Of a DNA stretch of 64,000 bases, positions 49,413-64,000 are shown piece after piece. Origin of the DNA: Armatimonadota bacterium (GTDB taxonomy: Bacteria > Armatimonadota > UBA5829 > DTJY01). The notes under the pieces were generated by a model. That model saw only the letters and a program-made list of their open reading frames with translations, was not told the origin of the DNA and did not search any database. How positions within the stretch are numbered: the stretch's first letter is position 1; the number at the start of each line of letters is the position of its first letter. Location: contig OY760504.1 in assembly GCA_963663705.1 (NCBI GenBank), forward strand, positions 1,538,788 through 1,602,787, in the 5' to 3' direction. Position numbers and translations under genes: made by a program.

Positions 49413-50174
49413 CTATCGCTCGAACCGCACAGTCTGCCATTCTGCGGGCAGGTGGAAATTGGTTTTCGAAAGAGGTGAGCTTGCGCTGAACTCTATCCCA
49501 TCTGGCAGGTAGACGGAACAATCAATCCTTGCAAGTTGTAACATCCACTTGTCGCCAACATTTGGAGCCTTGCCATTAAGCGTCGGCAGGGATGCAAACG
49601 GGATGGCCACTTCCATGATCCAATACTCATCAACATCATAAGGATTGTTCAGCGTACCCTTTATGGAGATGCCAACATTGATCCCCTCGCAGTTCCAATG
49701 CTTCCATCTGCCATCCATGTAGCATTCCGTATCCCTCTTGATCATATGTGCATCATATATGGTACCGAGCGCGTTGATCTCAAAGTTGTAATACGGCTCG
49801 CTGGAAGGGTCCGTCTTGAAGAATACTTCCAGCACATCCTCAAGGCAGGTTGGGCCATCTCTCATTGTCTGATAGCCCCAAATATCCTTGTCGTAGGCTT
49901 TGAAGGCCACATAGAGATACTTGTCATCCCAGAGGATCTTTCCTTCTGTATTGCTGAGCGGCTTTGCGCCGGTTTGTGGTATGTAGAAGTTTACGCCCGT
50001 CACCCGCTGCCAATCCGCTTCATCCAGCTTTCCGTCGATTGAGATCGGTCCGGTCGCACGGTGGCAGTCATACGGGGGCAGCGTTGCCCCCGCAGATGCG
50101 CTTGGCGAAAATGCCAGGATTTGAGCGGCAAAGCACAAACCCAGCACATTGAATACTATTCGATTGCGATTCAT
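49413..50174 (-). CDS. Secreted carbohydrate-binding family 9-like (DOMON-like) protein
   Basis: Signal peptide; IDGKLDEADW, LWDDKYLYVAF, YYNFEINALG, EVAIPFASL. Confidence 0.8.
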   Translation of the reverse strand: MNRNRIVFNVLGLCFAAQILAFSPSASAGATLPPYDCHRATGPISIDGKLDEADWQRVTGVNFYIPQTGAKPLSNTEGKILWDDKYLYVAFKAYDKDIWGYQTMRDGPTCLEDVLEVFFKTDPSSEPYYNFEINALGTIYDAHMIKRDTECYMDGRWKHWNCEGINVGISIKGTLNNPYDVDEYWIMEVAIPFASLPTLNGKAPNVGDKWMLQLARIDCSVYLPDGIEFSASSPLSKTNFHLPAEWQTVRFER

Positions 50175-50193
50175 TCTTACCCCTCAACGAACG

Positions 50194-52227
50194 CTATTTC
50201 TTCGTGACAGCGTCCATATCCAACGATGCATCTTCTGCCGGTTCCAACACTTCCGCATGCGCGTCGGGATTGACCACGCGTCCATCATCCGAGTGGTCAC
50301 GCACAGCGGTCGACAGATGATCGAGCAATCCACGAATGTCTAGAACGCCGCCGATGGTGAACCAAACCACGAACGGGACGCTCATGATGAGATTCATCAT
50401 AAGAGTAACCTTCCAGTACAGTGACCACGAAGCATCCGATACGTGAAACACCAGGTTTGCCACGGAAAACACTGCAAACCAGAGGAAGTTTAGAGAATTC
50501 CAGGTAACCAGCATCACAGCAAGGAATCTATCCCCACGGCTGAACTCTTTTGTGATACCAAGCAGTTTATGCCAGGCACTGGCTTTATACTCTTCATCGG
50601 GAATCACTACCACTCCATCCGAATATTCGCCCCTATGTAGCATCCGCTCCAGATTGAAAGGTGCTTTCCCTTTGCTGGTTGCCAGGGAGACAAAGAAGTA
50701 AAGTGCCATCGAGATGAGCATGGAGAAGAAGAAGATATTCTGGGCATTCATCGGAAAATCATGGTGATACAACTTTTGCCATATTACCGGAAGCGCCGTA
50801 TTCGCCAGACCGAGGAAACATCCGGCATTGAGTGCGGCATACGCTCCTGCCGTGGTGCCACGCCGCCAGTACAGCCCTCCTACGATGGCCGCGCCCGAGC
50901 CTGCCAGCCATATGGTTCCAGTAGCCGCGAAGAACATCAGTATCTTCTGACTTGGCGGGTAGACCCAGCTAAAAACAAATGCAAATGCTGCCACTCCAAG
51001 GATAGACCATCTAAGCAACTTGATGTGCTGCTCAGGCGAGACCGCCTTGTTCTTGAACGGCATGTACACATCCTGAATAAAGATGCTGCCCCAGGAATGC
51101 ATATAGCTATCGTGGCAGGTGAAGGATATAAAGAGCATAATCGTAGCGAATAGCCCTTTTATACCTATCGGCAGGAAATTCACCAGGGCTATCGGCACCA
51201 TCATCTCTTCACGCACAGTGGCGTTCGGAATATGGCTGAGGGATGCCTGGATCATGGCTGCGTTCCTTGAGAACTCGGGGAGGCGCAGTACTGCGAGCGC
51301 TGCCAGCCCGAGCAAAGTGATCATCAGAGTCTGTGGAATAGCTCGCCATCCGCCTATGATTCCACCCATCTTCTGCTCATGCGGGGTACGAGCGCTGGAA
51401 TTGAATCCCTGCGTGCCCTGCCATGACATATATGTGTAGAAAGTGCCAAATACGCCTATGACATAAAACCAGAAGTTGAAATCCTTAACATTGCCGGTAT
51501 GGAACGGATTAATAGTAGACGCCCCGACCTTGGAGCCCATCTCCATGCCGTGCATCAATTGCGGCCAGGTGAAATGCGTGATCACAACCAGCGATATCAC
51601 CAAAAACGCTACGGTACAGAACATCCCCTGCACGCACTCGGTGATCATGACGGATATCTGACCGCCCATCAGCACGAAGGAAAGAGCAAGGGTCATATCG
51701 ATCGCCATAACGAAGACGTATGTATTTAAGTCCCACGGTATACCGGGCATGTGGAAATGGGCCGGAAGTCCGCAGTAGTAGACAAAGAATCGAGCAGCGA
51801 CACCGGGGAAGATGCCAAAGTTCAGGATTCCGGAAAGCCAGCACATAAGGCCTGCATTTATACGAAATTTCCTGGTATAGCGCATTTCGAAGAATTGAGC
51901 GAGTGTGAGTGCGCGTGTCTCTCTAAACCGGTAGTATACCCATCCCGAAAGCAGGATGATTGTGCTGGCCGGAATTGTAAGCCATTGCCACCAGTTCGGA
52001 GAAAGTCCGGCGGAGTTCATCACCTCGAAGAGTGCTACAACGCTCACCACGCCTATGCCGCCCATTTGCGACGCTATGGTGAGAAGATATCGTCCCGCGG
52101 ACCGATTTGCTGAAAGGAAATCGGCCACACCTTTCATATACTTGCGTGTGCTCAGGCTCACGAGCCGGATAGCCACCACCGCAACCACCATTATAGACCA
52201 ATCCAGTAGTGTCAAGTTCGTATGCAT
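50194..52227 (-). CDS. Sodium:solute symporter (SSS)
   Basis: About 14 TMs, DFLSANRS, YRFRETRALTLAQFFEMRY, GGLYWRR. Confidence 0.9.
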   Translation of the reverse strand: MHTNLTLLDWSIMVVAVVAIRLVSLSTRKYMKGVADFLSANRSAGRYLLTIASQMGGIGVVSVVALFEVMNSAGLSPNWWQWLTIPASTIILLSGWVYYRFRETRALTLAQFFEMRYTRKFRINAGLMCWLSGILNFGIFPGVAARFFVYYCGLPAHFHMPGIPWDLNTYVFVMAIDMTLALSFVLMGGQISVMITECVQGMFCTVAFLVISLVVITHFTWPQLMHGMEMGSKVGASTINPFHTGNVKDFNFWFYVIGVFGTFYTYMSWQGTQGFNSSARTPHEQKMGGIIGGWRAIPQTLMITLLGLAALAVLRLPEFSRNAAMIQASLSHIPNATVREEMMVPIALVNFLPIGIKGLFATIMLFISFTCHDSYMHSWGSIFIQDVYMPFKNKAVSPEQHIKLLRWSILGVAAFAFVFSWVYPPSQKILMFFAATGTIWLAGSGAAIVGGLYWRRGTTAGAYAALNAGCFLGLANTALPVIWQKLYHHDFPMNAQNIFFFSMLISMALYFFVSLATSKGKAPFNLERMLHRGEYSDGVVVIPDEEYKASAWHKLLGITKEFSRGDRFLAVMLVTWNSLNFLWFAVFSVANLVFHVSDASWSLYWKVTLMMNLIMSVPFVVWFTIGGVLDIRGLLDHLSTAVRDHSDDGRVVNPDAHAEVLEPAEDASLDMDAVTKK

Positions 52228-52321
52228 TAATACTCCTTGCCCTCTGTCAAATTGAGGGCATGACAAATAATATTCCATCGTCATGGAGAACAATATCGAG
52301 AGAGTTCACGGTCAAGTAAGG

Positions 52322-53302
52322 CTACTCAACCGTAAACGTGCTGCCGTCGAAGCTGACGGCCGGGCCAGGGATAGAATTCAGTCTTTCCATACTAATACCG
52401 AGCAGTTCAAGCGGATTCTCCCTGCCAACTTTCCACAGCTCACATTCCGCGATTATATCCAGCGATGCCAGATAATTCATACACTCGAACATCGTGGAGT
52501 GAGATGCCGCGAGCCCGCCGGACTCAGGGCAGGCGATCCTCCCGTTTGGCTCTATCTCTACAGTCTTGCCAAATGCAGTATAGATCCCCGGAGGCATTCC
52601 TGCAAGCGGCGACGCATCGCTTACTACGATGAATTTGTGCGCGGTTTTTGCTCTGAGGGCAACTTTGATGAATGCTGCAGGCAGATGGTGTCCATCCGTT
52701 ATGAATGTGCCGAATACGTCATCGCATGAAAGCATCCACCATAGAGGATTATTGTGCCGGTGGATCTCGTTTGGAAGACCGTTGCCAACATGAGTGCACG
52801 ATCTTGCGCCCGCTTCTACTGATCGAGAAAGTGCGCCGTCATCTGCCATGTTATGTCCAAGGGAGATGGTCACGCCGTTCGCTGACGCATGACGTATAAG
52901 CTCGAATGCTCCAGGTTCTTCCGGCGCGAGTGTCAGAACTTTTATGTTCCCCTCGGCCCACTCCTGCATCCGATCAAACTGTTCAACCGACGGCTTCCTT
53001 ATGCAGTCCCGCCTGTGCACGCCGCATGCCCCTGGTTTTGGCGATATGAACGGACCTTCAAGATGTATTCCGAGGATATGCGGGGCAAGTTCGCGATCGG
53101 ACATGGCACTTGCCAGCACTTGCAGGTTATGCCTGTAGGTTTCATCGGAACTCGTGCATATCGTAGGACAATACGCGATTGTTCCGTTTGCCGCAAGCGA
53201 CCGGGTGACGGATCGCACATCGTCGATCGACAACGCGCTATCCGAAAAATCAATGCACTTGTATCCGTTTACCTGTATATCCACGAAGCCGTTATACATC
53301 AT
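52322..53302 (-). CDS. nagA: N-acetylhexosamine(-phosphate) deacetylase, NagA family
   Basis: FVDIQVNG, GIHLEGPF, THVGNG, DGHHL, VVSDA. Confidence 0.85.
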   Translation of the reverse strand: MMYNGFVDIQVNGYKCIDFSDSALSIDDVRSVTRSLAANGTIAYCPTICTSSDETYRHNLQVLASAMSDRELAPHILGIHLEGPFISPKPGACGVHRRDCIRKPSVEQFDRMQEWAEGNIKVLTLAPEEPGAFELIRHASANGVTISLGHNMADDGALSRSVEAGARSCTHVGNGLPNEIHRHNNPLWWMLSCDDVFGTFITDGHHLPAAFIKVALRAKTAHKFIVVSDASPLAGMPPGIYTAFGKTVEIEPNGRIACPESGGLAASHSTMFECMNYLASLDIIAECELWKVGRENPLELLGISMERLNSIPGPAVSFDGSTFTVE

Positions 53303-53390: not shown

Positions 53391-54578
53391 CTAGATCCAG
53401 CCGCGATCGCGCATGGATTCTACCACTTCATTGACTGCTATAACCTGTGCGGCCATCCGGTGGGATAGCCCGTCATTGCGAACCAGCGCAGATACCTTGG
53501 TATATGCCTTCGATATCTGATTCAGGATAGCATCGTATGTCTCACGCTTTTCCGTAAGACTTCCGGATTTCGCCTGGCGCCACTCTATGTAAGAGGCTAT
53601 CACTCCACCCGAGTTTGCCATGATATCCGGCATGATCGGAATGCTGCGTCCACAGAGAATGCGGTTACCATCCGGCGTTGTAGGATCGTTTGCAGCTTCT
53701 ACTACAAGGCTCGTCTGCATTGCGGCTGCGATATCACCTGTAATTACGCCTTCGACTGCGGCCGGTACTACCACATCAACCGGCAAAAGCAGCAGTTCAT
53801 CTGGAGATATGCTGGACAGGTTCAGATCGCTTATAAGCGATGCGTCCATCATCTCTTCAATCGGCAACCCTTTTACATCGTAGACGGCGCCGCTTATGTC
53901 GGATATTGCGACGACCCTTGCGCCCCACTCGGCAAGGAACTTCGCGGTCCATCGGCCTACGTTTCCAAAGCCCTGTACGGCTACGGTGAGATTCTTGACG
54001 TCTTTGCCAAGCAGCTCTTCCGCCGCCATCTTGACTGTGCATGCGACTCCATATCCTGTCGCTTCTTTTCTACCGGGGAGGCCTCCAATTCGCGGCGGCT
54101 TGCCGGTAACCGATTCCAGCGAGTGAGTGCATCCGTAGATAGTTGCCATGTCTGCGGGGGTTGTACCCATATCAGGCGCTGGGACGTATGCTCCGGTTTC
54201 TATATATGGTCCGAACATATGAACATATTCAGACAGTAGAGCTCTTCTCGACTCGGGGCAGAGATCGGCGGGATTTATGCAAATACCGCTTTTTCCTCCA
54301 CCGAAAGGTATTCCTACAAGGGCACACTTGTATGTCATGAGTTCCGCAAGTCGTCGGGTCTCATCGAATGTTACCTTGTCTGACATGCGGATGCCACCCT
54401 TTGCAGGTCCTCTCGCCGAGCTGTGCAGGACTACATATGTGTCCGCACAGATAAGTTTCCCACCCCAGTTGACGTTCAGGTTTGCGTATGCTTCCTGCTG
54501 AGGCTTGCGCAGAATTCGTTCTGCATTTGATCCAATTTCCAAGTGTTTGGATACTTCGTTGAAATCTACTACGCTCAT
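53391..54578 (-). CDS. Glu/Leu/Phe/Val dehydrogenase
   Basis: GPAKGGIR, MTYKCA, GGGKSG, VPAPDMGT, QGFGNVG. Confidence 0.92.
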   Translation of the reverse strand: MSVVDFNEVSKHLEIGSNAERILRKPQQEAYANLNVNWGGKLICADTYVVLHSSARGPAKGGIRMSDKVTFDETRRLAELMTYKCALVGIPFGGGKSGICINPADLCPESRRALLSEYVHMFGPYIETGAYVPAPDMGTTPADMATIYGCTHSLESVTGKPPRIGGLPGRKEATGYGVACTVKMAAEELLGKDVKNLTVAVQGFGNVGRWTAKFLAEWGARVVAISDISGAVYDVKGLPIEEMMDASLISDLNLSSISPDELLLLPVDVVVPAAVEGVITGDIAAAMQTSLVVEAANDPTTPDGNRILCGRSIPIMPDIMANSGGVIASYIEWRQAKSGSLTEKRETYDAILNQISKAYTKVSALVRNDGLSHRMAAQVIAVNEVVESMRDRGWI

Positions 54579-54649
54579 GGTTTACATCTCCTTTGATGTT
54601 GGGCTATCCCCATTGATAGCCTGATTTGATTATAGTATATTTTTCGGCT

Positions 54650-56062
54650 TTATGAAAGCCAGTCGGTATGGAATGTGCCCGGCGTGTCCAGGCGTTTGTA
54701 CGTGTGGGCGCCGAAGTAGTCCCTTTGAGCCTGAATAAGGTTCGCGGGGAGGACTGCGCTCCTATACGAATCGTAGTATGCGAGGGCACTTGAGAATGCC
54801 GGCGCTGGAATTCCAAGAGTTACCGCCGCTGATACTACCTTTCGCCACTCGGTATCCGCACCCTGCACCGCCGAAACGAAGTACGGAGCAAGGAGCAAGT
54901 TCGAAAGCTTGGGATTTTCATCATAAGCCTCTTTTATTCTGTCAAGGAACTGCGCACGTATGATGCATCCGGCCCTCCATAACTGAGCGATCTCACCGTA
55001 ATTGAGATCCCAGCCGTATTGATCCGATGCCTCACTCATGAGCGCGAAGCCCTGCGCGTAAGAACAAATCTTGGAGGCGTACAGTGCCTTCCTGATCGCT
55101 TCGATGAACACACCTTTGTCGCCATCATACCTGCTATCAGGACCGGTGAGAATTCCCGATGCCGCTACCCGCTCCGTCTTGATGGCGGATATGCACCGTG
55201 CGAAGACTGCTTCTGCGATTGTTGGCGCCGCTACTCCGAGCTCAAGGGCGATCTGGCTCGTCCAGCTTCCCGTGCCCTTCTGTCCGGCACTGTCCATTAT
55301 CACATCTACTATCGGCGCCCCGGTTTTTTCATCGTTCTTCGCAAAGATATTTGCGGTGATCTCGATAAGATAGCTGTTCAGTTCACCCTTGTTCCACTCT
55401 TCGAAGACTTCGTGGAGTTCTTCGGCTGAGAGGCCAAGCGCATTCTTCAGAATTGTATACGCCTCGCAGATGAGCTGCATGTCGCCGTACTCTATGCCGT
55501 TGTGCACCATCTTCACGAAGTGGCCTGCACCACCTGAACCTATCCACTGGCAGCATGGAGTCCCATCCTCCACCTTTGCCGCGATATTCTGTAGGATCGA
55601 TTTCACGTGCGGCCATGCATCCGGCGAACCGCCCGGCATTATGGCTGGACCTTTCAGCGCGCCTTCTTCTCCGCCCGAGACTCCCGTCCCGATGAATCGC
55701 AGACCCTTCTCCTCAAGCGCTTTAGTACGCCTGATCGTGTCTTTGAAGTAGGAGTTACCGCCGTCTATCAGAATATCTTCCGCTTCAAGGTACGGTGAGA
55801 GTTTCTCGATGACGTCATCCACCGGTTTTCCGGCATTGACCATCATCATGATCCGTCGCGGCTTTGCGAGCGCATCCACGAATTCCTGGATGGTATAGGC
55901 ACCGATGACATTCTTACCCTTCGCCTTGCCTGCAAGAAACTCGTCGACCTTCTCTTTTGAGATGTCGTAGCCCGCGACGTTCGAGCCTTTGCTTTCCATG
56001 TTGAGGGCAAGGTTCTGACCCATCACTCCAAGGCCTACCATGCCAATATCTGCTTTTGTCAT
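54650..56062 (-). CDS. gnd: 6-phosphogluconate dehydrogenase, decarboxylating
   Basis: [47 protein letters not shown]. Confidence 0.97.
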
Positions 56063-56081: not shown

Positions 56082-57332
56082 TTATGGGTTCAGCCGGTAG
56101 AGCATCTCTCCGGCTTTCGGTACGTAGAGAATGCCTTCGGATTCTCTGTTCGCATAGTCGTTTGCATCGATATCATCCGGGTTCATGTATCCAAGGTTCA
56201 CGAGGCTGCACCTCTCCTTCGAGATGCCGGTCGCGAGTATGACTTCGATCCTCGGCAATTCCACGCCGTCCACGAAGGCGCCGATGCCCCGGACATGCGT
56301 TGAATGAGCGACTACCCCCCACGGATACCCTTTGAACCGATCCCACTGCGCCACGAAATAATCCCTTGTATGGTAGCCGATTTCATCCAGAATCCGTCCG
56401 TGAGTATATGATATCTCAGTTATGTGTGGCGCGTAAATAATCAACTTACCGCCGTCTGCCACTACGGATTCCAGCTTGTACATGCACTTCGCGCCGGTCC
56501 ACAGATCGTCGTACATCTTTGGCGCGCACGATAGCACTGTGTGAAACGGCTTGTCCACATACTTGATGTGCAGCTTGTCCGAAAGGTCTGCCGCATCGCT
56601 CCAGGCGTCTTCAGGCGACCCGTAGTAGAGCCCTGCAAGCCCAGATCCTTTTACCACCATGGCAAAACAACTTCGCTCCACAGGGATGTAACTTGCCGCG
56701 TCGTCCACCAGACGACGCACAGGCGTGTATTTGTGCCCTATTATTCCGGGGCTTGTGATTATGGCCCCAAGCCAGTGGAAGAAATCAATGATCTCCTGAC
56801 CCGCTATACCTGGAAAAATGTATTTGTTTCCCCCAGAGAAGCCGACCACTTCGTGCGGGAAGACCGGCCCCACGATCATCACGTGATCGTACTCGGTTAC
56901 CAGCCTGTTCACCGTGAGATTTACCGGCATCGAGAAGCGCCCGCCGGAGATTTCCTCAATTCTCGCCTCAGGGATAGTGCCTATCTGGATGAGCGCTTCA
57001 GGGTCTTTCCAGTGGTGATTCATGAATCTGGTTTTGGAATACTTACTGCTCGCCTCTTCGGCGGTGATCTCCACTCGGCTGTATATCTGATCCATCGTCA
57101 TCGGAGGATGTGTACCAAGCGCCACCAGCACGTCGAGGGCCTTGCACCGATCGGCAAGAAGCCCATAGAGCGTTTTGAACATGAGCCCCACCGGGGCCGT
57201 GCGGGTACTGTCCGGGATTATGAGAAGCACCCGTTTGCCGTCCAGGTATGGGCCGCCCACCGCTCGCGCTGCTATCGTTCGAACTTCATCTTCCGTTATT
57301 AACCTGTCTTCGTATCCTATGCCGTCTGCCAT
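56082..57332 (-). CDS. LarA-family (lactate racemase domain) alpha-hydroxy-acid epimerase
   Basis: [25 protein letters not shown]. Confidence 0.85.
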
Positions 57333-57343: not shown

Positions 57344-58231
57344 TTACTTCTCCCAGGCCGGATGCTCTGGAAGGTATTTTTCAAATTCCGCTATAAGACT
57401 CGCTTCGTATTCGCCTGCGTAAGTGCCGCCGATGAACCTATCGAAAGCTTCCCTGTGCAATCTCTCCCACGAGGCATCTTCGTCGCCGGGGTTTATCGGG
57501 TAGAAGAGCACGCCGTTTGCCGCTGCGGCCTTCTGATCGCCGATGGCGTCACCGATCATGAGGACGTGATCCCGCTCGTACCGGCCTTCGATGGCGTACG
57601 CGAGATGCTCTTTCTTTGTCCCCATCTCCTGCCCGGCGATGACTTTTACATATCCACTGATGCCGTGCTCCTGCCACTCTCGGACGAGGGCTTCGCCCGG
57701 GGTCTGCGAGACTACGATGGTATCGGCGAACGGCAACATCTGCTGTATGCTCTTCTTCGCCCACGGGAACGGCGGAACGTTCTTCACGATATCCTTAACC
57801 GTCTCATTCACCGCTATCGACCACTCGAGCACGGTCTGCATGAACGGATCAGGATTTGCCGCCACGTACCGCTCGAGTGCCGGGTTTCCGAGCTTTGACT
57901 CCTGTGCTATCCACTTCTCCAGAGGAGCGTAGTCCGGTATCGCTGCCCCGCGGGCCTTGACTTCTTCCCTGTCACGCAGGAGTTCGAAGACCTTTATCAT
58001 GGCCGGGAAGCGGTTTACTCCACGCCACTTGGAGTAGAGGTTTACGAACTCTCCTGCCTCTCGTGCATATTTTGCTATCGGCTGAAAACCGAAGTATTTG
58101 CAGCTGTTCGGGATGAAGCACTCTTTCTGCTTGATCTCCATGCTGTCGAATACGCAGCCGTCCGAATCTATTCCAACAAGAAAGTCATGCTCTTTCTTCA
58201 AATCTATAAGTTGTTGAGCCGCATTGCTCAT
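57344..58231 (-). CDS. HAD-family hydrolase
   Basis: GIDSDGCVFD, VVSQT, MIGDAIGD. Confidence 0.85.
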   Translation of the reverse strand: MSNAAQQLIDLKKEHDFLVGIDSDGCVFDSMEIKQKECFIPNSCKYFGFQPIAKYAREAGEFVNLYSKWRGVNRFPAMIKVFELLRDREEVKARGAAIPDYAPLEKWIAQESKLGNPALERYVAANPDPFMQTVLEWSIAVNETVKDIVKNVPPFPWAKKSIQQMLPFADTIVVSQTPGEALVREWQEHGISGYVKVIAGQEMGTKKEHLAYAIEGRYERDHVLMIGDAIGDQKAAAANGVLFYPINPGDEDASWERLHREAFDRFIGGTYAGEYEASLIAEFEKYLPEHPAWEK

Positions 58232-59535
58232 AGTGCGTTTCCTTTCGATTCTACACTGTGCCCCTGCGGTACGTATTCAGGGAGCTTCTTCTCTGCAAAG
58301 ATAGGCTTCATCCGCGCAAACCGCTGGATGCCGCCGACAACCGGAACGCTTACCCAGTCTTCGCCGATTAGCGGTTTCGCATACCGGACGAAATCGTCCG
58401 TCACGTCTGTTCCGCTCTCTGCAATCCACTTGGGGCTGATCTTCCGCTCCGAGTTTGCGACGAGACTAAGGGGAACTCGCCCGTAGTCTACGCTGTAGAT
58501 CATACCGGGCTTTCGCGTGATCGTGCTCATAAACCCGTTTGCATCCTCCGACGCAATGACAACGGCCATCTGTCCAAGCTTGTAGGCTTCGTCAAGGTCT
58601 ACTACGGAGGCATAAGCGATTGCATCCCGCTGATCACATCCGGGCACCTGTCCGCGTGCTGCGCCTCGAGCTTTTATGCCGACACCGTTCAGATAGTTTA
58701 CGACTGCCTGTGCGACCGTGGTTTTGCTCGCACTGAACTGTGTGTGCCCGAACGAGTCTTTGGTCTCCCCAAGGTCGCCGATGTTCAGACCTTCGTTTAC
58801 CACCACCATCACTCGGCCGTCTCTCTTCAATTGTTCATTTACATTATCGGCAAGTTCTTCTATGCCAAGGCCGCTCTCTGCAAGGTAGATCTGAAGCGGC
58901 ATCTTCCTCTCGGGATCTGCGAGCCGCGCCGCCGCCGCGATAAAGCCAATCTTGCGCCCCATTGCCTGCATGACGAGCACCGGATCCGCCGGGGATGAGC
59001 CCATGTTTTCTTCGTTCGCGTTCTGAACGTAACTCGCCCAGTACCTCGCCACACTGCCGTAGCCCGGCGTATGGTCGATCAGCTTGAACTCGGAGTCGCC
59101 GACGTCGTTGTCGATGGTCTTCGGTACACCGACCGCTGTAAGTTCAAGACCTTCCTTCTGCGCCAGGATGCTGATCTTGTTTGCGGTATCCATGGAATCG
59201 TTTCCGCCGATGTAGAAGAAATAGCCTATATCGTGTGCACGGAAGATATCTATCACCCGGGCAAAATCCCTGGGCCTGTCATTCGTCAGCTTGTACCGGC
59301 ACGTGCCGATGGAACCCGCAGCCGGGGTTGTCCTGAGGAGTGATATCTCCTCCGCACACTGACCGGAAAGATCGAGAAGTTCCTCGCGAAGAATCCCTTC
59401 CACACCGTGCCAGCCGCCGTAGACTGCGCCGAACTTTTCAGGAAACTCCCGGCACGTCTCTATGACGCCCCTCAGCGAATTGTTTATGACCGGCGATGGC
59501 CCGCCGGATTGTGCTACTAATACGTTTTTTGGCAT
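58228..59535 (-). CDS. PPi-dependent phosphofructokinase-family kinase
   Basis: AQSGGPSPVIN, GGNDS and PKTIDND (PPi-type Asp/Lys), MGR. Confidence 0.85.
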   Translation of the reverse strand: MPKNVLVAQSGGPSPVINNSLRGVIETCREFPEKFGAVYGGWHGVEGILREELLDLSGQCAEEISLLRTTPAAGSIGTCRYKLTNDRPRDFARVIDIFRAHDIGYFFYIGGNDSMDTANKISILAQKEGLELTAVGVPKTIDNDVGDSEFKLIDHTPGYGSVARYWASYVQNANEENMGSSPADPVLVMQAMGRKIGFIAAAARLADPERKMPLQIYLAESGLGIEELADNVNEQLKRDGRVMVVVNEGLNIGDLGETKDSFGHTQFSASKTTVAQAVVNYLNGVGIKARGAARGQVPGCDQRDAIAYASVVDLDEAYKLGQMAVVIASEDANGFMSTITRKPGMIYSVDYGRVPLSLVANSERKISPKWIAESGTDVTDDFVRYAKPLIGEDWVSVPVVGGIQRFARMKPIFAEKKLPEYVPQGHSVESKGNAL

Positions 59536-59556: not shown

Positions 59557-60411
59557 CTAAACCCCGCTGAATGCGCTGAATCCGCCATCCACCGGCACCA
59601 CTATTCCAGTAACAAATGCAGATGCGTCCGACAGCAGCCAGACTAGCGTGCCAGTCAGGTCTTCAGGAGTGCCGAACCGGCTCATCGGAGTATGGCCGAT
59701 GATGGTGTTACCCCTATCCGTCAGTGCGCCCGTTTTCTCGTCAGTGAGGAGGAAACGATTCTGGTTCGTCAGGAAGAATCCGGGAGCGATCGCGTTCACT
59801 CTGATCCCTGCCGGCGCGAAGTGCGTCGAAAGCCACTGCGTGAAGTTCGATATACCGGCTTTTGCAGCCGAGTATGCGGGGATCTTCGTGAGCGGGCGGA
59901 AGGCATTCATGGATGATATGTTTATGATCGCGCCGCCGCCATTGCCCGCCATCACCTTGCCGAAGACCTGAGTCGGAAGCAGAGTCCCGATAAAGTTCAA
60001 GTTGAAGACAAACTGAACGCCGTCTGCATCAAGGTCGAAGAAAGTCTTTACGCCTTCCACAGCCTGCATGCAATCCTCGGGGGACAGGCGCTCTTTTGAT
60101 GTGGTGGCCTTCGGGTTGTTTCCGCCTGCACCGTTTATGAGGATATCTACGCCTCCGTATGCACCGAGCACTTCTTCGCACGCGGCCTCAAGGCTCCCCT
60201 TGTCGAGGACGTTGCACGCAACCCCGATGGACGTCCCGCCGTTCGCCACTATATCGCGCGCGACGGCTTCGGCGGCCTCTTTCCGAAGATCAAGCACTGC
60301 CACCTTCACTCCGCGTTTGCCAAGTTCAATTGCCATCGTTCGGCAAAGCACTCCGCCGCCGCCTGTGATTACCGCAGTTTTACCTGTTAACTCAAATAAA
60401 TTCTTATCCAT
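59557..60411 (-). CDS. SDR oxidoreductase, D-mannonate/fructuronate reductase-like
   Basis: TGGGGVLC, NGAGGN, PAYSAAKA, RVNAIAPGFF; resembles UxuB-type SDRs found next to uxaE. Confidence 0.75.
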   Translation of the reverse strand: MDKNLFELTGKTAVITGGGGVLCRTMAIELGKRGVKVAVLDLRKEAAEAVARDIVANGGTSIGVACNVLDKGSLEAACEEVLGAYGGVDILINGAGGNNPKATTSKERLSPEDCMQAVEGVKTFFDLDADGVQFVFNLNFIGTLLPTQVFGKVMAGNGGGAIINISSMNAFRPLTKIPAYSAAKAGISNFTQWLSTHFAPAGIRVNAIAPGFFLTNQNRFLLTDEKTGALTDRGNTIIGHTPMSRFGTPEDLTGTLVWLLSDASAFVTGIVVPVDGGFSAFSGV

Positions 60412-60415: not shown

Positions 60416-61804
60416 TTAACTCCTGTATGCCAGCTTGAGGTGATCCTCTATGTGGCCGGCGACATAACTGTAATGCGCATCTTCATTGGCTCGCAGGATT
60501 TTCGCTATCCTGTCGCCCGCGTTATCGAGCAGCACGCCGTACGATATATGAAATAGCTGGCGCACGTCACGGGTATCGAAAAACGCCTGCATGTCACGCG
60601 GAACGGCGACAGGAAAAACCTCGCTCGTGATATCCACGTGATACGACTTTTTGCTTTCGGTGAGATGCTGAAGACACAGATTGTACATCTCTCGAAACAG
60701 CTCCGGATCTACCGACGCTATCAGCCTGACCGCCTGAAGCCAGCTGGTGCCGGAGGTCTTTATGTGAAATTTGTGATCCGTGATCTCCCCAAACATTGGG
60801 TAGATGCTGAACTTATCGCTGCCGGAGTGCAGACTGAGCCGGTAGCCACCCGTTTGTGCGATCGCCGCATGCACCCTAAGCGACCGATCGAGATCATCGA
60901 CATCGCCCATATAGTCGACGCCCTTCTGGAACTCACCAGGGAACTTCGGGGCCAGGCTGCTGAATCCGGCGCCGCTTCTTTTCAGATATTCCGCCACGTA
61001 CAGATGATCTTCGGGCGTGGTGTCCATGCTGCCCTCATCTATCGATATCTCCAGGTCGTAATCGCTCATATACTCGCGGATGATGCCGTCAAAACGCTTG
61101 ACCTGCTCCATCGCTTTTTCGTAGACATGGGCGGATTTCGTCAGCTCGTTCGACGAAAAAGTGTATTCCGACCCATCAACCCTTTGCCCTGCATGGCGTG
61201 CGATTACTTCACGTGAAAGGTTGGAGATATCCACCGCGTCGTCTGCCTTACTCCCCATCCAATCGCTGACATCGATTGTATACATGCTGTATCCGGCTGA
61301 TGCACCCTCTCTGAGATGCACCTCATCCTTGATATGATCTGCATCGGCTCCGAATTTGCCGGTATATCCACTCTCCAGCACTCCCATGACTGCATCGAGG
61401 AGCACGCCCTTGAAGGTCCGGTTCTCTTTCATCAACTCTCGAGGCGATTGCTGTGCAATCACCGGAAATGCCGGATACTTTGCAAGGGCTTTTACATGTG
61501 CCGCAGCCACCATCCCGAGCCTGTCGCCAGTACCAAAAGATGACGGGCTGTCACAGGGTGCAGGCGCAATTGGCAGTATGCCCTTCAGCGCCTCGTAGTT
61601 TTCCCAGTTCAGCGGATACAGGCTTATTTTATCGGACGAGCACTGCCATACAGGCGACGACAGATCGAAAGATCCCTCTATACCGATAAACTTTTCGCTG
61701 TCTCTGCTGGCAACAAACAGCTTTGAACCGGCGTCAGCATCTCGAAGCGATTCGGGATAAAGGCGAAATCCGTTTTGTTTTAATATATCAGACAATGTCT
61801 GCAT
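60416..61804 (-). CDS. uxaE: Tagaturonate/fructuronate epimerase
   Basis: SFGTGDRLG, QQSPRE, ADADH, EISIDE, SLAPKF, SLHSGSDKF, HIKTSGTSW. Confidence 0.88.
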   Translation of the reverse strand: MQTLSDILKQNGFRLYPESLRDADAGSKLFVASRDSEKFIGIEGSFDLSSPVWQCSSDKISLYPLNWENYEALKGILPIAPAPCDSPSSFGTGDRLGMVAAAHVKALAKYPAFPVIAQQSPRELMKENRTFKGVLLDAVMGVLESGYTGKFGADADHIKDEVHLREGASAGYSMYTIDVSDWMGSKADDAVDISNLSREVIARHAGQRVDGSEYTFSSNELTKSAHVYEKAMEQVKRFDGIIREYMSDYDLEISIDEGSMDTTPEDHLYVAEYLKRSGAGFSSLAPKFPGEFQKGVDYMGDVDDLDRSLRVHAAIAQTGGYRLSLHSGSDKFSIYPMFGEITDHKFHIKTSGTSWLQAVRLIASVDPELFREMYNLCLQHLTESKKSYHVDITSEVFPVAVPRDMQAFFDTRDVRQLFHISYGVLLDNAGDRIAKILRANEDAHYSYVAGHIEDHLKLAYRS

Positions 61805-61819
61805 GGCACAGTTCCTCAT

Positions 61820-63193
61820 TTACTTACTGGCAAGTACTTCGTCTACTGCCTCTTCAAAGATCTGGATCGATTCCCTTAATGCATCCTCAGTGATGCTGAG
61901 CGGCGGTGCGATTTTGAGACATGCGCCTGACATGCCAACCGGCGCAAACATTAGAAGCCCCTTTCTAAAGGAAGCTTCGTTGATCTTCTGGGCAGTCGCC
62001 GGATCAGGATCCTTGGTACCAGGCTTCACGACCTTGATACCTGCAACCAGGCCTTTACCTGTCATATGCCCCAGAACGCTTGGATATTTTTTCTGAATTC
62101 TCGCAAGTTCGGGAATCAGTATATCGCCGAGCCGTGCTGCATCCTCTACCATGGTTCCTGATGTAAGCACCTTGATATTGGCAAGTGCTGCGGCAACAGG
62201 TAGCGGTGATGCAGAGTGCGTAGAAGTCATCGACCCAGGTGCGTACAAGCCCATGATATCCTCACGGCCTATAACTGCTGAGATAGGAAGCGAGGATGAG
62301 ATACCCTTGCCGCACGGGATTAGATCAGGAATAATGCCGTAATGCTCGAAGCAGAACATCTTTCCGGTTCGACCAAACCCTGACTGCACCTCATCGAAGA
62401 TCATGACTATATCGTGTTTTTTACAGAACGCCTGCAGTTTCTTAGCGTAATCTACGGGCACAAAATCTGGACCGCCGCCCTGGTAGCTTTCCGTCATCAC
62501 GCCTGCGATCTCATCGCCTGTGATGCCCTTGTCTGCGATAGTCTTCAGGAAAAGGTCGAAGGACGTATCCATATTTCGATAACCGTCCGGGAACGGAACC
62601 TGCACAAATGTCTGGTCGCGATCCACCATCCAGGCTTTTTGCGCCTCTGATCCGCCGGCAAGCTGCGAGCCCATCGTCCTGCCATGGAAGCAGTTTGAAA
62701 AGCTGACGAAGTACTTTTTCGTTGGACCGTATTTTTTCAACGCATAAGTTTTGGCAAGTTTTATGCAGTTTTCCGTTGCCTCGCTACCGGTGCTGAGCAA
62801 AAACGCCCTGTATGTTTTAGGATCGGGCGAAAGGCTTGCCAGCGCATTGGTAAGCTCCGCGCGCTGCTCGTGAACGAAGACATATGTCGCAAGCAGCCCC
62901 TGGTCAATTATCTTCGTCAGGGCGCTCTTCACCGCAGGATGCCCATGTCCGATGTTTGACACCAGTACGCAGCTCGACCAGTCGATCCACCTGTTTCCCC
63001 ATTTGTCAGATATGGTGAAGTTATCGGCTTTGTGCCATATGATCGGTGGCTGCCCCATCATCGACTGCGGCTCCGATGCCTTCAGCTTCTCGAATATCGG
63101 GAGCGATTCCGGCACAGGAAGCTTGGTTTTAATGCTCCTGTACTTTGTCTCTATCTTCGGTACTTCTACCGGTGTAAGATCGTATACTGCCAT
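61820..63193 (-). CDS. Class III PLP-dependent aminotransferase
   Basis: TGSEATE, FHGRT, FDEVQSGFGRTG, GKG (Schiff-base Lys), STH. Confidence 0.92.
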   Translation of the reverse strand: MAVYDLTPVEVPKIETKYRSIKTKLPVPESLPIFEKLKASEPQSMMGQPPIIWHKADNFTISDKWGNRWIDWSSCVLVSNIGHGHPAVKSALTKIIDQGLLATYVFVHEQRAELTNALASLSPDPKTYRAFLLSTGSEATENCIKLAKTYALKKYGPTKKYFVSFSNCFHGRTMGSQLAGGSEAQKAWMVDRDQTFVQVPFPDGYRNMDTSFDLFLKTIADKGITGDEIAGVMTESYQGGGPDFVPVDYAKKLQAFCKKHDIVMIFDEVQSGFGRTGKMFCFEHYGIIPDLIPCGKGISSSLPISAVIGREDIMGLYAPGSMTSTHSASPLPVAAALANIKVLTSGTMVEDAARLGDILIPELARIQKKYPSVLGHMTGKGLVAGIKVVKPGTKDPDPATAQKINEASFRKGLLMFAPVGMSGACLKIAPPLSITEDALRESIQIFEEAVDEVLASK

Positions 63194-63224
63194 TCTTTAT
63201 CTCCTATTCAAGGCTTATTTGCCA

Positions 63225-64000
63225 TTACTTTAATTTTGCATGCCCGAGTTCTACGTGCGGATGGTCTCCGTAGACGATGCGGACGGCGTCTCCATCGCGA
63301 AGGATCGACATCCTTGCGGCTTCCACCACCAGTTCATTTATACAACTGTTTGCCGGGGTGGCGATTATGCCTTTAGCATCGGCCGCACGGATGATCTCCC
63401 GGCGGCGATCCATGGCCTTTTCTCCTGCAAGCGATGAAACTTCGTTCTCCATACTGCCTATTGTGTTGATGGTTGCTGCCACGGAATCGAATCCGTAGCC
63501 AACGGGTTTGTATCCATCACCTTCCCATGGCACCAGTCGATAGAAATCTGGGCTTACGAAGTTGTGTACGCTCCCTGCGCAGCCGATCCCCTCAAGGTAG
63601 CTGTGCGTCACGCCTCTGAACTGGTCGTCATGCTTGATCATGCCACTCTTGTCATCGCCCTCACAGAACATGGTGAGGCACTGTTCGTTGCTGCCTGCGC
63701 CTTCGTCCGGGTATCCCAGACCATCGGTGACCGACAGAATCGCGCCGTTCTCATAGCGAATTCGGCCGTTTGCCCACAGGTAACCTCTGTTGCCATTCGG
63801 AAAATTGCCTTCTATCCCCTGAACCGATACCTCAACAGGCCTTATTCCGGTGATAAACCAGACCAGATCGACATAGTGGCATCCGACGTATACAAACGGA
63901 TCGGTTCTGTCACACGTAAACCAGTTCTGAAAGTTGGAATGGCGGTAGTAGTACGGTTCTATCATCTTCGCCTCGCCCATGATGAACTCGCCGAAATGCC
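63225..64000 (-). CDS. Gfo/Idh/MocA-family oxidoreductase, 5' end outside the window
   Basis: Frame open to the window edge (…HFGEFIMGEAK); YVGCHYVD, VEVSVQG. Confidence 0.7.
   Translation of the reverse strand, partial: HFGEFIMGEAKMIEPYYYRHSNFQNWFTCDRTDPFVYVGCHYVDLVWFITGIRPVEVSVQGIEGNFPNGNRGYLWANGRIRYENGAILSVTDGLGYPDEGAGSNEQCLTMFCEGDDKSGMIKHDDQFRGVTHSYLEGIGCAGSVHNFVSPDFYRLVPWEGDGYKPVGYGFDSVAATINTIGSMENEVSSLAGEKAMDRRREIIRAADAKGIIATPANSCINELVVEAARMSILRDGDAVRIVYGDHPHVELGHAKLK

Follow-up and report, generated by a model that had tools for sequence, protein, structure and literature searches.

In this study, we found that an operon at the end of a 64,000-nucleotide stretch of Armatimonadota DNA (the window, meaning the whole stretch analyzed) joins a widespread deacetylase–oxidoreductase–transaminase set to a conserved five-gene keto-uronate block. 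We tentatively propose that this LacI-controlled operon converts an N-acetyl-2-amino-2-deoxy-hexuronic acid (GlcNAcA, ManNAcA and, possibly, GalNAcA via UxaE) to ribulose-5-phosphate, a reading to which we would give slightly less than an even chance. It builds on gene content, on the conservation and linkage of the modules and on intact catalytic residues; from these observations we infer the substrate, the chemistry of the oxidoreductase and the aminotransferase, the substrate of the kinase and the order of the steps.

Layout and regulation of the operon

Twelve co-oriented genes occupy the minus strand at 49413–64000, and the open reading frames together with Pfam and NCBIfam assignments confirmed the whole run as an earlier note on this DNA had described it. 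The gaps measure −4 to 31 bp from the Gfo/Idh/MocA oxidoreductase (Gfo) through the 6-phosphogluconate dehydrogenase Gnd, 71 and 88 bp on the two sides of the glutamate dehydrogenase (GDH), and then 28 and 19 bp. The earlier note was right that the 5′ part of the operon lies outside the window, as the Gfo gene is cut at base 64000, but what is missing proved to be only the N-terminus of Gfo (430 aa in full) and a LacI-family regulator, beyond which lies a divergent NAGPA-domain gene. These were seen on an overlapping contig, L001, that is identical to window positions 58118–64000 (0 mismatches in 5883 bp), and neither uxaC nor uxuA was found on it upstream of base 64000, where the note had advised looking. 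Homologues of UxaC and Eda were found nowhere in the 64 kb by tblastn, and neither UxuA nor KdgK was found among the Pfam-scanned reading frames (21 of the 39 of at least 180 aa in 1–44200, plus those at 44111–49394), in agreement with the earlier note, in which none of the four enzymes was visible. With no UxaC in the cluster or close to it, the keto-uronate must be supplied in another way.

The Gnd–GDH intergenic region (54579..54649, minus strand) may be an internal promoter or regulatory site: a pattern scan picked out a promoter-like site and an inverted repeat with an 11-bp stem, in pattern counts that do not exceed the shuffled expectation. The motif TwAAACGTTACA lies upstream of lacI in L001 and in two related clusters, L139 and L140, and also before gfo in L140 and before the SDR gene in L139; it is a candidate operator common to these lacI-linked clusters.

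A recurrent five-gene block

The block comprises, on the minus strand, a UxuB-type SDR (fructuronate reductase/D-mannonate oxidoreductase; 59557..60411; NF006132, 418 bits versus a cut-off of 281), a PFK-family kinase with a PPi-type sequence (58228..59535; NF010675, 378 bits versus 273), a HAD-superfamily protein with a C1 cap that is a putative phosphatase or phosphomutase (57344..58231; weak match to PF13419), a LarA-family (nickel-pincer nucleotide) 2-hydroxyacid epimerase related to the gluconate 2-epimerase GntE (56082..57332; PF09861), and the decarboxylating Gnd (54650..56062; TIGR00873, 745 bits versus 427). The same genes in the same order were found in eight loci, the window and L139–L145. 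Identities between the window and the other loci are 56–79% for the SDR, which opens the block in L139–L145, 72–82% for the PFK-like kinase, 58–75% for the HAD protein and 60–75% for Gnd, which is the final gene in every complete locus. LarA-like orthologues hold the same position at 67–76% identity, except in L142 (30%). This recurrent block corresponds to the lower half of the pathway drawn in the earlier note, in which UxaE, UxuB, LarA, a kinase and Gnd lead to the pentose phosphate pathway without Entner–Doudoroff enzymes. A UxaE–SDR–PFK–HAD arrangement was also found in L085, L091, L094 and L095. The block stands alone in L143–L145, and in L142 it lies beside UxaC, a distant UxaE-family gene, Eda, a TRAP transporter and LacI; this company of UxaC, UxaE and Eda marks the block as a route from fructuronate to ribulose-5-phosphate (Ru5P).

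The LarA-like protein matches PDB 4nar (E=1e-62) and retains the equivalents of D/T/R, H108, H174, K184 and H200. That entry, deposited as a 'putative uronate isomerase', has a LarA-type fold, and we take it to be probably T. maritima GntE, an identity that the PDB record does not state. With 185 bits against NPN_18_hexonate, whose cut-off is 500, the window protein belongs to a sister group of LarA homologue group 18 rather than to the group itself, while a true member (653 bits) occupies the same block in L142. Group 18, the 'putative hexonate epimerase' (NCBIfam NF052594), has SDR genes in 36% of its neighborhoods, 6PGDH in 32% and UxaC in 12% (PMC7583248).

The deacetylase–oxidoreductase–transaminase set

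Upstream of the block lie Gfo (63225..64000, minus strand, the C-terminal 257 of its 430 aa, with the frame open to base 64000; PF22725) and a class III aminotransferase of the GABA/acetylornithine type (AT; 61820..63193, minus strand; PF00202, 286 bits). AT scores below the cut-off of every NCBIfam equivalog, and among PDB entries it is matched best by GABA aminotransferases and amino-acid racemases. Relatives at 70–80% identity are spread over many phyla, and the sequences FHGRT and C-x-K-x-(A/S)-P-P are found in 120 of 120 and 118 of 120 AT relatives, respectively. In GABA and acetylornithine transaminases, the FHGRT arginine binds the distal carboxylate. Its retention in AT, together with the adjacent glutamate-type GDH, would fit an acidic amine substrate. 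Among 80 genomes from many phyla, 70 have a Gfo-family gene next to AT, and in 58 of the 80 loci the neighbor is a Gfo orthologue (at least 52% identity), 57 times directly upstream and once downstream.

The NagA-like amidohydrolase (52322..53302, minus strand; TIGR00221, 180 bits, below the cut-off of 226) lacks the N-terminal ~52 residues of NagA, with in-frame stops just upstream. It keeps the equivalents of E. coli NagA Q59/N61, E131, H143, H195, H216, R227, H251 and D273, a set that includes the C6-anion-binding arginine. With its catalytic residues intact, the protein looks catalytically competent, and we propose that it is an N-acetyl-hexosaminuronate deacetylase. Orthologues (55–60% identity) adjoin the Gfo–AT pair in L006, L008, L139 and L140 and lie near it in L051. 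GDH (53391..54578, minus strand), a short protein of 395 aa with ELFV Pfam domains and the GPAKGG lysine, has a homologue (71% identity) immediately downstream of AT in L016; further GDHs adjoin Gfo–AT in L071 and L002/L026. The sodium:solute symporter family (SSS) transporter (50194..52293, minus strand; PF00474, with a superfamily match only to TIGR00813) is a putative substrate importer. The CBM9-like protein of 253 aa (49413..50174, minus strand; PF06452, 34 bits) has an N-terminus that reads as hydrophobic and signal-peptide-like, and CBM9-like genes likewise flank the related clusters L006, L091 and L140.

The NagA-like, Gfo and AT genes are physically linked to the block in three genomes, those of the window, L139 and L140; in the latter two, they lie with LacI immediately upstream of it. 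Elsewhere the linkage is partial. The SDR directly follows AT in L038, L050, L063 and L080, and tblastn gave a match in the same place in L062; SDR–HAD precedes Gfo–AT in L075; Gnd–HAD–NagA-like lies near Gfo–AT in L051; a NagA-like gene accompanies the block in L141; and an AT partner, 'unk414', follows Gnd in L143. Partial combinations of the modules extend to Verrucomicrobiota, Kiritimatiellae and Aminicenantes.

It is nonetheless conceivable, although we consider it unlikely, that the operon is a mosaic whose sets are co-transcribed without handing on an intermediate. In that case, Gfo, AT, GDH and the NagA-like protein would remove the amino group of an ordinary hexosamine, turning the amine into a ketone and then into a hydroxyl (GlcN or GalN into a hexose, for example), while UxaE and the block would use glucuronate or galacturonate with a UxaC encoded elsewhere. 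The modules are indeed separable, given the loci in which the block is alone or sits with UxaC. Moreover, in most of the 80 loci (those of Terriglobia, for example) no uronate genes lie within 10 kb of the Gfo–AT pair, which also speaks against our own reading. The substrate of the pair may be a broader or a different one. Their neighbors elsewhere are of an amino-sugar type: ROK/NagC-like regulators, M20 deacylase, GH73 glucosaminidase and DUF5009, the last a weak match below the Pfam cut-off that is possibly NagX-like. Gfo also matches PDB 2glx, a 1,5-anhydrofructose reductase, and Gfo-family enzymes of this kind reduce ring ketones. However, the two sets are rejoined in L139 and L140, where a single LacI and a common operator-like motif precede both, and parts of the block accompany Gfo–AT in other phyla. 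The operon also contains no hexokinase or hexose-handling gene, and the missing UxaC is found neither in the window nor upstream of it.

A hexosaminic acid or C1-oxidized hexosamine is quite unlikely as the substrate; examples would be N-acetyl-glucosaminate, as could arise from oxidative cleavage of chitin, or GlcN that Gfo oxidizes to glucosaminate. Transamination at C2 would then yield 2-keto-gluconate, to be reduced to mannonate or gluconate, phosphorylated, 2-epimerized and passed to Gnd. C1 oxidation is typical Gfo-family chemistry; it weighs against our own reading that we know of no Gfo/Idh/MocA enzyme reported to reduce an aldose C1 to the alcohol. In addition, the single best PDB match of AT and several more are α-amino-acid racemases or epimerases of the same fold; Gnd, the kinase and LarA would suit a hexonate end-game; and the amino-sugar-type neighbors of Gfo–AT would suit it too. 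Against this, a LarA 2-epimerase would be superfluous if the 2-keto acid were reduced straight to gluconate, UxaE and the UxuB-type SDR would have no obvious role, and the arginine that normally binds the α-carboxylate is a lysine in the AT family. The SDR family also sits with UxaC in L142, which argues for 5-keto rather than 2-keto substrates.

The PFK-like kinase and the HAD protein

The amino-uronate route needs a kinase, and the PFK-like protein is the sole candidate in both operon and block. It is ~45% identical over its full length to the PPi-PFK structures 3k2q and 3hno, which we take to belong to the Methylococcus-type short PPi-PFK group, and it keeps TIDND with the PPi-type Lys as well as MGR; PKT(I/V)DND occurs in 92 of 120 relatives. 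However, GGNDS is present in 120 of 120, whereas 3k2q and 3hno have GGGDS, and where E. coli has R and 3k2q has K as the basic ligand of the 6-phosphate, all family sequences tallied have Pro. The protein further differs by a 5-residue insertion after TIDND, by an Arg-rich insertion and by its linkage: the gene follows a UxuB-type SDR in 12 of 12 loci examined, and L091 is the only one in which it does not do so directly. Other UxaE/Gnd clusters fill the kinase role with an FGGY kinase, whose best NCBIfam match is gluconokinase (below cut-off). We propose that the PFK-like protein is a putative sugar-acid kinase, either a mannonate 6-kinase or a fructuronate 1-kinase, although it could instead be a true PFK that works for the pentose phosphate pathway.

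It is very improbable that the operon runs through phosphorylated amino sugars. In such a route, the NagA-like protein would deacetylate GlcNAc-6-P, the PFK-like protein would be an ordinary PPi-dependent F6P/S7P kinase and the HAD protein would be a sugar-phosphate phosphatase; the latter two would serve the non-oxidative branch of the pentose phosphate pathway, downstream of Gnd, and the hexonate kinase would be encoded elsewhere. The NF010675 score, the retained PPi-type motifs, the 6-phosphate-binding arginine of the NagA-like protein and, in L142, a class II (FBP) aldolase right after Gnd and a PdxB-like gene accompanying the block would agree with it, but the kinase follows the SDR even in loci with no Gnd within reach, Pro takes the place of the basic residue that binds the 6-phosphate of F6P, GGNDS stands where 3k2q and 3hno have GGGDS, and the operon has neither a GlcNAc sugar kinase nor a PTS.

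The HAD gene overlaps the PFK-like gene by 4 bp. Its product has no PDB sequence match; the AlphaFold model (pLDDT = 95.5) gave phosphoglycolate-phosphatase-like proteins, beta-phosphoglucomutase and the BT2127 pyrophosphatase as best Foldseek matches (TM ~0.5), and 43 sequences all retain the motifs DSDGC, S/T, K and GDxxxD.

UxaE and the entry substrate

The UxaE tagaturonate/fructuronate epimerase (60416..61819, minus strand) matches PF16257 over its full length (468 bits) and the structures 9lhw (E=3e-91) and 6il9 (E=3e-76). Outside the source genome, UxaE occurs in 0 of 80 AT loci and AT and Gfo in 0 of 52 UxaE loci, and it was not found in the otherwise equivalent clusters L139 and L140. 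The earlier note had expected UxaE to co-occur with AT and NagA, and had reasoned that its pathway would fall if uxaC or uxuA lay just upstream and the aminotransferase and NagA were not conserved with uxaE; the second is literally what we observed and the first is not. Because UxaE is never with AT or Gfo elsewhere, tagaturonate and GalNAcA are not the general case. It is the SDR–PFK–HAD–LarA–Gnd block that is conserved with AT and Gfo, which makes fructuronate, from gluco- or manno-configured amino-uronates, the more likely general entry. UxaE would be an accessory gene, an add-on for galacto-configured substrates, and GalNAcA, the note's example, is at best an extra substrate in the source organism. 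Thus, the lower block of the earlier scheme and its linkage to NagA-like, Gfo and AT stand, whereas the conservation of UxaE and a general tagaturonate entry do not.

Proposed pathway and related systems

In the pathway we favor, the SSS transporter would import the substrate and the truncated NagA-like amidohydrolase would remove the acetyl group. Gfo and the 2-oxoglutarate-dependent AT would then convert the 2-amino-uronate to a 5-keto-aldonate (fructuronate), Gfo by reducing C1 to give an acyclic 5-amino-5-deoxy-hexonate and AT by replacing the amine with a ketone, in an order that is uncertain. GDH would re-oxidize glutamate to 2-oxoglutarate for AT and NH4+, returning the reducing equivalent spent by Gfo. 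UxaE would convert tagaturonate to fructuronate where needed, and the UxuB-type SDR would reduce fructuronate to D-mannonate. The PFK-family kinase would add a phosphate and the LarA-type epimerase would invert C2, most likely from mannonate via 6-phosphomannonate to 6-phosphogluconate; alternatively, phosphorylation of fructuronate at C1 before reduction would lead to the same intermediate. Finally, Gnd would yield ribulose-5-phosphate and CO2.

The upper steps have their closest parallels in biosynthesis. In NtdC/NtdA (kanosamine) and WbpB/WbpE, a Gfo/Idh/MocA dehydrogenase and a PLP transaminase interconvert sugar hydroxyl, ketone and amine, and Gfo has a weak PDB match to WbpB (3o9z). The pairing is the same, but the transaminases there are DegT-family enzymes and the substrates are nucleotide- or phospho-sugars, whereas AT is a class III (GABA/AcOrn-like) enzyme in a catabolic, LacI-regulated setting with GDH. 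Similarly, the NagA-like protein shares its amidohydrolase fold and its metal, catalytic and C6-anion residues with the NagA/AgaA N-acetyl-hexosamine-6-phosphate deacetylases, but is truncated, scores below the family cut-off and has no NagB, AgaS or sugar kinase alongside it.

For the lower steps, the hexuronate cluster of Thermotoga maritima, as relayed in PMC7583248 and PMC6978723 from Rodionova et al. 2012, comprises gnd, uxaE, uxuB, gntE (a LarA homologue) and gntK. It likewise unites UxaE, a fructuronate reductase of the SDR type, a LarA-family 2-epimerase and Gnd, and directs the carbon of hexuronates to 6-phosphogluconate and into the pentose phosphate pathway, not to KDG and the Entner–Doudoroff enzymes. 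In contrast, the window operon has a PFK-family kinase and a HAD protein in place of UxaC and an FGGY gluconokinase, and has NagA-like, Gfo, class III aminotransferase and GDH genes added upstream. The galacturonate pathway of Lactobacillus suebicus also runs from fructuronate via mannonate, 6-phosphomannonate and 6-phosphogluconate to Ru5P with a UxuB/Gnd redox balance; its kinase for mannonate and its 2-epimerase for 6-phosphomannonate were measured in extracts, and their genes were not assigned, with GntK homologues suspected (PMC6978723). Our scheme is redox-neutral, a property noted for that route, but it puts forward a PFK-family kinase and a LarA homologue as candidates, and its feed is not UxaC. 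If our proposal is true, the operon probably represents a so far undescribed route for the breakdown of N-acetyl-amino-uronic acids.

Gene content and borders of the operon

The co-oriented twelve-gene run that the earlier note had described at 49413–64000 was recovered by ORF listing and profile searches, with every gene on the minus strand. It encodes a Gfo/Idh/MocA oxidoreductase (Gfo), of which the C-terminal 257 residues lie inside the window; a class III aminotransferase (AT); UxaE (PF16257, 468 bits, positions 1–474 of 475 in the profile); a UxuB-type SDR (NF006132, D-mannonate oxidoreductase, 417.7 bits against a cut-off of 281); a PFK-family protein (PRK14072 PPi-PFK, NF010675, 378 bits against 273); a HAD-like protein and a LarA homologue, both assigned by profile search; Gnd (TIGR00873, decarboxylating 6-phosphogluconate dehydrogenase, 744.6 bits against 426.7); a short glutamate dehydrogenase (GDH; PF00208 and PF02812); a NagA-like amidohydrolase (TIGR00221, 179.8 bits, under the cut-off of 225.65); an SSS transporter, also assigned by profile search; and a CBM9-like protein with a hydrophobic, signal-peptide-like N-terminus. 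Intergenic spacing from gfo to gnd ranges from -4 to 31 bp, and the GDH gene is flanked by gaps of 71 and 88 bp. Because a promoter and terminator pattern scan of the operon gave counts no higher than the shuffled expectation, we argue the operon borders from gene spacing alone. The 71-bp gap between gnd and the GDH gene contains an inverted repeat at 54598–54625 with an 11-bp stem (GGCTATC...GATAGCC) beside a promoter-like site; judged from its sequence, this repeat may be an internal regulatory element that divides the run into two transcription units.

The upstream end of the operon is provided by contig L001, which was retrieved with the exact AT protein and matches window positions 58118–64000 with 0 mismatches in 5883 bp. 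In L001 the full gfo gene encodes 430 aa and is directly preceded by a LacI-family regulator gene, and the operon therefore begins at lacI-gfo. The possibility that the Gfo ORF is frameshifted or a pseudogene was ruled out, as its reading frame merely crosses the window end. The earlier note had seen neither uxaC nor uxuA, and this holds upstream as well, where L001 shows just the N-terminal part of gfo and lacI before divergent genes. Beyond lacI, positions 1–7266 of L001 encode a divergent 580-aa protein with a NAGPA (phosphodiester glycosidase) domain and a hydrophobic, signal-peptide-like N-terminus, a two-component system (an AraC-type response regulator and a PocR histidine kinase), a DegT-family aminotransferase, a cyclase-family protein and an aminoglycoside N-acetyltransferase-like protein. 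Homologues of UxaC and Eda were absent from the whole 64 kb by tblastn, and UxuA and KdgK were absent among the ORFs scanned, which comprised those in 44111–49394 and, within 1–44200, 21 of the 39 that are 180 aa or longer. No larB, larC or larE was seen in the 64 kb and a further 9 kb of the 3.78-Mb genome.

Elsewhere in the window, a thiamine operon on the plus strand (45890–49346; thiG, a thiH-like radical SAM gene, thiF and thiE) lies downstream of the sugar-acid operon in convergent orientation and is preceded by a TPP riboswitch at 45533–45640 (+; RF00059, 65.7 bits). A GH4 gene occupies 44111–45460. Further away, 8917–27057 is a neighbourhood for mannoside utilisation, with GH38 alpha-mannosidases at 8917–11562 (-) and 22904–25750 (+), a GH130 gene at 13357–14406 (-), a 353-aa HAD protein at 14381–15442 (-), a beta-helix/pectate-lyase-like protein at 18053–19993 (-), an ABC solute-binding protein and two regulators combining a GntR HTH with a LacI-type sensor.

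A conserved five-gene block

Relatives of the PFK-like protein are 72–81% identical across phyla, and in all seven contexts examined from this gene (L139–L145) the order SDR, PFK-like, HAD, LarA, Gnd is preserved, with identities established by tblastn. What accompanies this block varies. Directly upstream of it, L139 and L140 carry genes for the NagA-like protein (58–60% identical), Gfo (77–80%), AT (74–75%) and LacI (57%), with no UxaE. The window operon thus has the L139/L140 architecture with UxaE, GDH, SSS and CBM9 genes added. An FGGY kinase in L139 was considered as the pathway kinase and rejected, being a near-cut-off rhamnulokinase. In L142 the block is accompanied by UxaC, a distant UxaE, Eda, a TRAP transporter, LacI, a class II aldolase and a PdxB-like dehydrogenase, and in an Elusimicrobia contig (L141) by a NagA-like gene; no feeder gene was found within 10 kb of the block in L143–L145. 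The PdxB-like gene lies within the block in both L141 (12375–13535) and L142 (13671–14804) and scores 421 bits against the cut-off of 434 for 4-phosphoerythronate dehydrogenase; the presence of a phospho-2-hydroxyacid dehydrogenase there hints at phosphorylated 2-hydroxy acids or hexonates as intermediates. The stretch of the block from HAD or LarA to Gnd is interrupted by toxin–antitoxin pairs, DUF6290/ParE-like and MazE/PIN, at L141 16061–16556 and L145 12397–13061, and a reverse transcriptase gene lies just past gnd in L145.

The PFK-like protein is about 45% identical to the PPi-PFK structures 3k2q and 3hno and keeps PKTIDND (TIDND with the PPi-type Lys) and MGR. At the 6-phosphate-ligand position, the top family variants tallied, which cover 70 of the 120 sequences, read ‘PADP’, with Pro for a basic residue and none among these basic. 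We take this position to correspond to the Arg just before MGR in E. coli PfkA and the Lys in 3k2q and 3hno, residues in contact with the F6P 6-phosphate. Further differences are GGNDS, not GGGDS, in 120 of 120 family sequences, and two insertions. For the HAD protein, the four catalytic motifs (DxDx[T/V/C], S/T, K and GDxxxD) are invariant (D22, D24, S175/T177, K206, D228, D232), and no PDB match was obtained by sequence; its structural model (pLDDT 95.5), with a Rossmannoid core, places it in the C1-cap HAD class only, with fold-level likeness to C1-cap phosphatases, beta-phosphoglucomutase and a HAD pyrophosphatase. The LarA homologue matches PDB 4nar at 1e-62, and alignment to 8ezf/5huq and 2yjg shows equivalents of DSTR, THPP, PHEV, GGNK and FFHW, so that the NPN-binding and catalytic residues of L. 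plantarum LarA (the D/T/R motif, His108, His174, Lys184 and His200) are kept. Against the group-18 equivalog NF052594 it scores 185 bits, under the cut-off of 500; the L142 LarA scores 653 bits and is a genuine member of group 18 (‘putative hexonate epimerase’).

The oxidoreductase–aminotransferase pair

Relatives of the AT number 7,896 at E <= 1e-30, and the best 120 of these are 71–80% identical, with the closest in Armatimonadota and others in Terriglobia/Acidobacteriota, Verrucomicrobiota, Kiritimatiellia, Lentisphaerae, Aminicenantes, Elusimicrobia and Anaerolineales. We surveyed 80 genome loci with 10-kb flanks, taking linkage counts from tblastn and setting aside a greedy clustering of ORFs in which clusters 8 and 12 were contaminated by shadow ORFs on the opposite strand. 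In 58 of the 80 loci the AT has a neighbour orthologous to the window Gfo (identity of 52% or more), directly upstream in 57 and downstream in one; in 12 further loci a second, IolG-like Gfo type takes the place of this orthologue, and some Kiritimatiellia loci have the AT without an adjacent Gfo. The genes that recur nearby have an amino-sugar character: the truncated NagA-like gene, an M20 ArgE/DapE-type deacylase and ROK/NagC-type regulators, along with GH73 glucosaminidase, GDH genes and a weak DUF5009 match, under the Pfam cut-off, that is possibly NagX-like.

Neither member of the pair has a close characterised relative: the best PDB match to Gfo is at 1e-8, and the AT resembles, at 1e-50 to 1e-62, GABA aminotransferases and racemases related to them. 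Among the best 120 AT relatives, FHGRT is present in all 120, and 118 have Lys at the position of the C-terminal Arg of related enzymes. The NagA-like protein is without the first ~52 residues (TIGR00221 positions 1–53 are unmatched), but this short form is native, as there are in-frame stops upstream and its orthologues are of equal length, and a damaged gene or pseudogene was ruled out on this conservation. It keeps the complete set of catalytic and metal-binding residues of E. coli NagA, and also the arginine that binds the C6 anion (equivalents of Q59/N61, E131, H143, H195, H216, R227, H251 and D273). The GDH has the ELFV domains and is under every NCBIfam GDH cut-off; it carries the GPAKGG lysine, which is characteristic of glutamate specificity and selects the side-chain carboxylate of glutamate.

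A second cluster type (L016, L017, L020, L025, L037, L038, L050, L062, L063 and L080) combines the M20 ArgE/DapE-type deacylase, the IolG-like Gfo and the AT, followed by a UxuB-type SDR and a Zn-dependent alcohol dehydrogenase or by a SIS-domain sugar isomerase-like protein. In Aminicenantes loci, the Zn-dependent enzyme encoded after AT-SDR gave weak and non-specific matches (Tdh, L-idonate dehydrogenase), and its assignment as L-gulonate 5-dehydrogenase was therefore discarded.

Links between the two modules and the position of UxaE

Besides L139 and L140, several contigs place genes of the block near the Gfo–AT pair. A UxuB-type SDR (62–70% identical) directly follows the AT in L038, L050, L063 and L080 (Aminicenantes and Acidobacteriota), and L062 has a tblastn match to the SDR at this position. 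L075, from the Kiritimatiellae, has SDR-HAD ahead of Gfo-AT, and L051, from the Verrucomicrobiota, has an operon of Gnd, HAD and NagA-like genes at a distance of 7 kb from its Gfo–AT pair. A protein of ~414 aa with no Pfam or NCBIfam match is encoded directly downstream of the AT in nine PVC loci, among them L084 5317–6561, L003 11651–12898 and L051 10489–11769 (the copies of the other loci are 68–71% identical to that of L084), and reappears immediately after Gnd at L143 17826–19064 (53% identical); it is probably another enzyme of the pathway. A candidate LacI-family operator, TwAAACGTTACA, occurs upstream of lacI in L001, L139 and L140, and also upstream of the SDR gene in L139 and of gfo in L140; its copies lie at 7545 in L001, at 7908 and 9045 in L139 and at 7704 and 4572 in L140, with none within window positions 49000–64000. 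A shared motif would be expected for one regulon, although one this short is suggestive only.

UxaE is not part of this shared core. Its product is predicted to be a tagaturonate/fructuronate epimerase from the full-length profile match and from matches to solved UxaE structures (9lhw, E = 3e-91; 6il9, E = 3e-76). None of the 80 AT loci contains UxaE, the PFK-like gene or a true LarA orthologue within its 10-kb flanks, and neither AT nor Gfo occurs in any of the loci of 52 metagenomic UxaE relatives. We therefore rejected UxaE as the anchor of the pathway, and its expected conservation with the AT did not hold. Three types of UxaE cluster were found: UxaE-SDR-PFK-like-HAD (L085, L091, L094 and L095), in which the PFK-like protein is 77–79% identical though UxaE is just 53–56%; LarA-Gnd beside UxaE, an ECF-S component, the SDR and an FGGY gluconokinase-like gene (L120, L123 and L130); and UxaE with a 2-hydroxyacid dehydrogenase, FGGY kinase, Gnd and SDR (L096–L104 and L136). 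Around the first type in L091, which is without UxaC or AT, lie genes for a DUF6259 protein (7186–9768; 860 aa), a ricin-lectin/esterase/SMP-30-like fusion (12372–14552; 726 aa) and a CBM9-containing protein (17255–20284; 1009 aa), which may be depolymerising enzymes acting on some uronate-containing glycan.

Proposed pathway and alternatives

UxaE interconverts tagaturonate and fructuronate, UxuB-type SDRs convert fructuronate to mannonate, and the product of Gnd is Ru5P. Epimerisation of mannonate and gluconate is carried out by LarA homologues of the GntE type (PMC7583248), and extracts of L. suebicus take mannonate through 6-phosphomannonate to 6-phosphogluconate (PMC6978723). We consider it likely that the five-gene block is a route from fructuronate or mannonate to Ru5P, in which the kinase product would most likely be 6-phosphomannonate and UxuB and Gnd would balance each other's redox requirements. 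Such a block needs a keto-uronate, and the joint clusters (the window operon with L001, L139 and L140) have no UxaC; the NagA-like, Gfo and AT set is therefore the most economical supplier.

We propose that the keto-uronate would come from an N-acetyl-2-amino-uronate by way of these three proteins. Reduction at C1 would give an acyclic 5-amino-5-deoxy-hexonate, whose amine–carboxylate spacing is that of acetylornithine and ornithine and would thus suit a class III transaminase that keeps the distal-carboxylate arginine. Transamination would then yield fructuronate, with GDH closing the 2-oxoglutarate and redox cycles. In a variant order, the AT would act first, the resulting 2-keto-uronate would be reduced to mannuronate, and the SDR would serve as a mannuronate reductase; this fits L139 and L140 equally but leaves UxaE unexplained. 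The earlier note had proposed that an amino-uronate such as GalNAcA passes through tagaturonate or fructuronate into the pentose phosphate pathway. This reading is partly supported: its core, an amino-sugar-acid front end feeding a fructuronate-to-Ru5P back end, stands up to comparative genomics, but the emphasis on UxaE, tagaturonate and GalNAcA is not general. Taken as a whole, the amino-uronate model stands a little short of an even chance.

Three other explanations account for fewer genes or clash with a conserved feature. A mosaic operon, with UxaC encoded elsewhere in the genome, is unlikely, and a hexosaminate or 2-ketogluconate route somewhat more so. That the PFK-like protein is a genuine PPi-PFK in service of the pentose phosphate pathway is improbable.

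In its most far-reaching reading, the operon would encode three enzyme functions for which we found no description. Gfo and AT would carry out a ‘reductive transamination’ of 2-amino-2-deoxy-hexuronates to keto-uronates in place of uronate isomerase; the PFK-family enzyme would phosphorylate C6 of mannonate, or C1 of fructuronate with the carboxylate mimicking F6P; and the nickel LarA-family enzyme would be a 6-phosphomannonate 2-epimerase. That all three hold together is doubtful.

Relation to known pathways and implications

The lower half of the pathway is a variant of the hexuronate-to-pentose-phosphate routes of Thermotoga and L. suebicus. The pathway of Thermotoga-type clusters includes UxaC and an FGGY/GntK gluconokinase, whereas neither is found in the operon, the 64-kb window or 9 kb upstream. 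Group-18 LarA homologues have already been noted beside SDR and 6PGDH genes (PMC7583248). We found no description of a PFK-like and HAD pair in such a role and no genes for a mannonate kinase or 6-phosphomannonate epimerase, terms that occurred in a single paper (PMC6978723). A paper on Thermogutta contributed nothing about the block. Likewise, no described function was found for the Gfo–AT pair, a search for an amino-sugar pathway combining a Gfo with a transaminase gave nothing relevant, and no catabolic pathway for amino-uronic acids was found in the searchable literature. There is a substantial chance of new enzyme functions within this operon.

If a PFK-fold enzyme does act on a sugar acid, a central enzyme of glycolysis would have undergone an unusual neofunctionalisation, a rare change of function. 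A LarA-family 6-phosphomannonate 2-epimerase would supply a gene for the activity measured in Lactobacillus suebicus, in a study whose authors pointed to a use in turning over pectin sugars in a redox-neutral way. Bacterial capsules, O-antigens, teichuronic acids and archaeal glycans commonly contain amino-uronic acids (GalNAcA, ManNAcA and GlcNAcA). The proposed pathway, if correct, would be the first catabolic route for these sugars, present in Armatimonadota, Acidobacteriota, PVC bacteria, Aminicenantes and others. The Gfo–AT pair is very abundant, with thousands of relatives, so that assigning it a function would annotate a large dark family, one with a possible part in the recycling of microbial necromass in soils and sediments.
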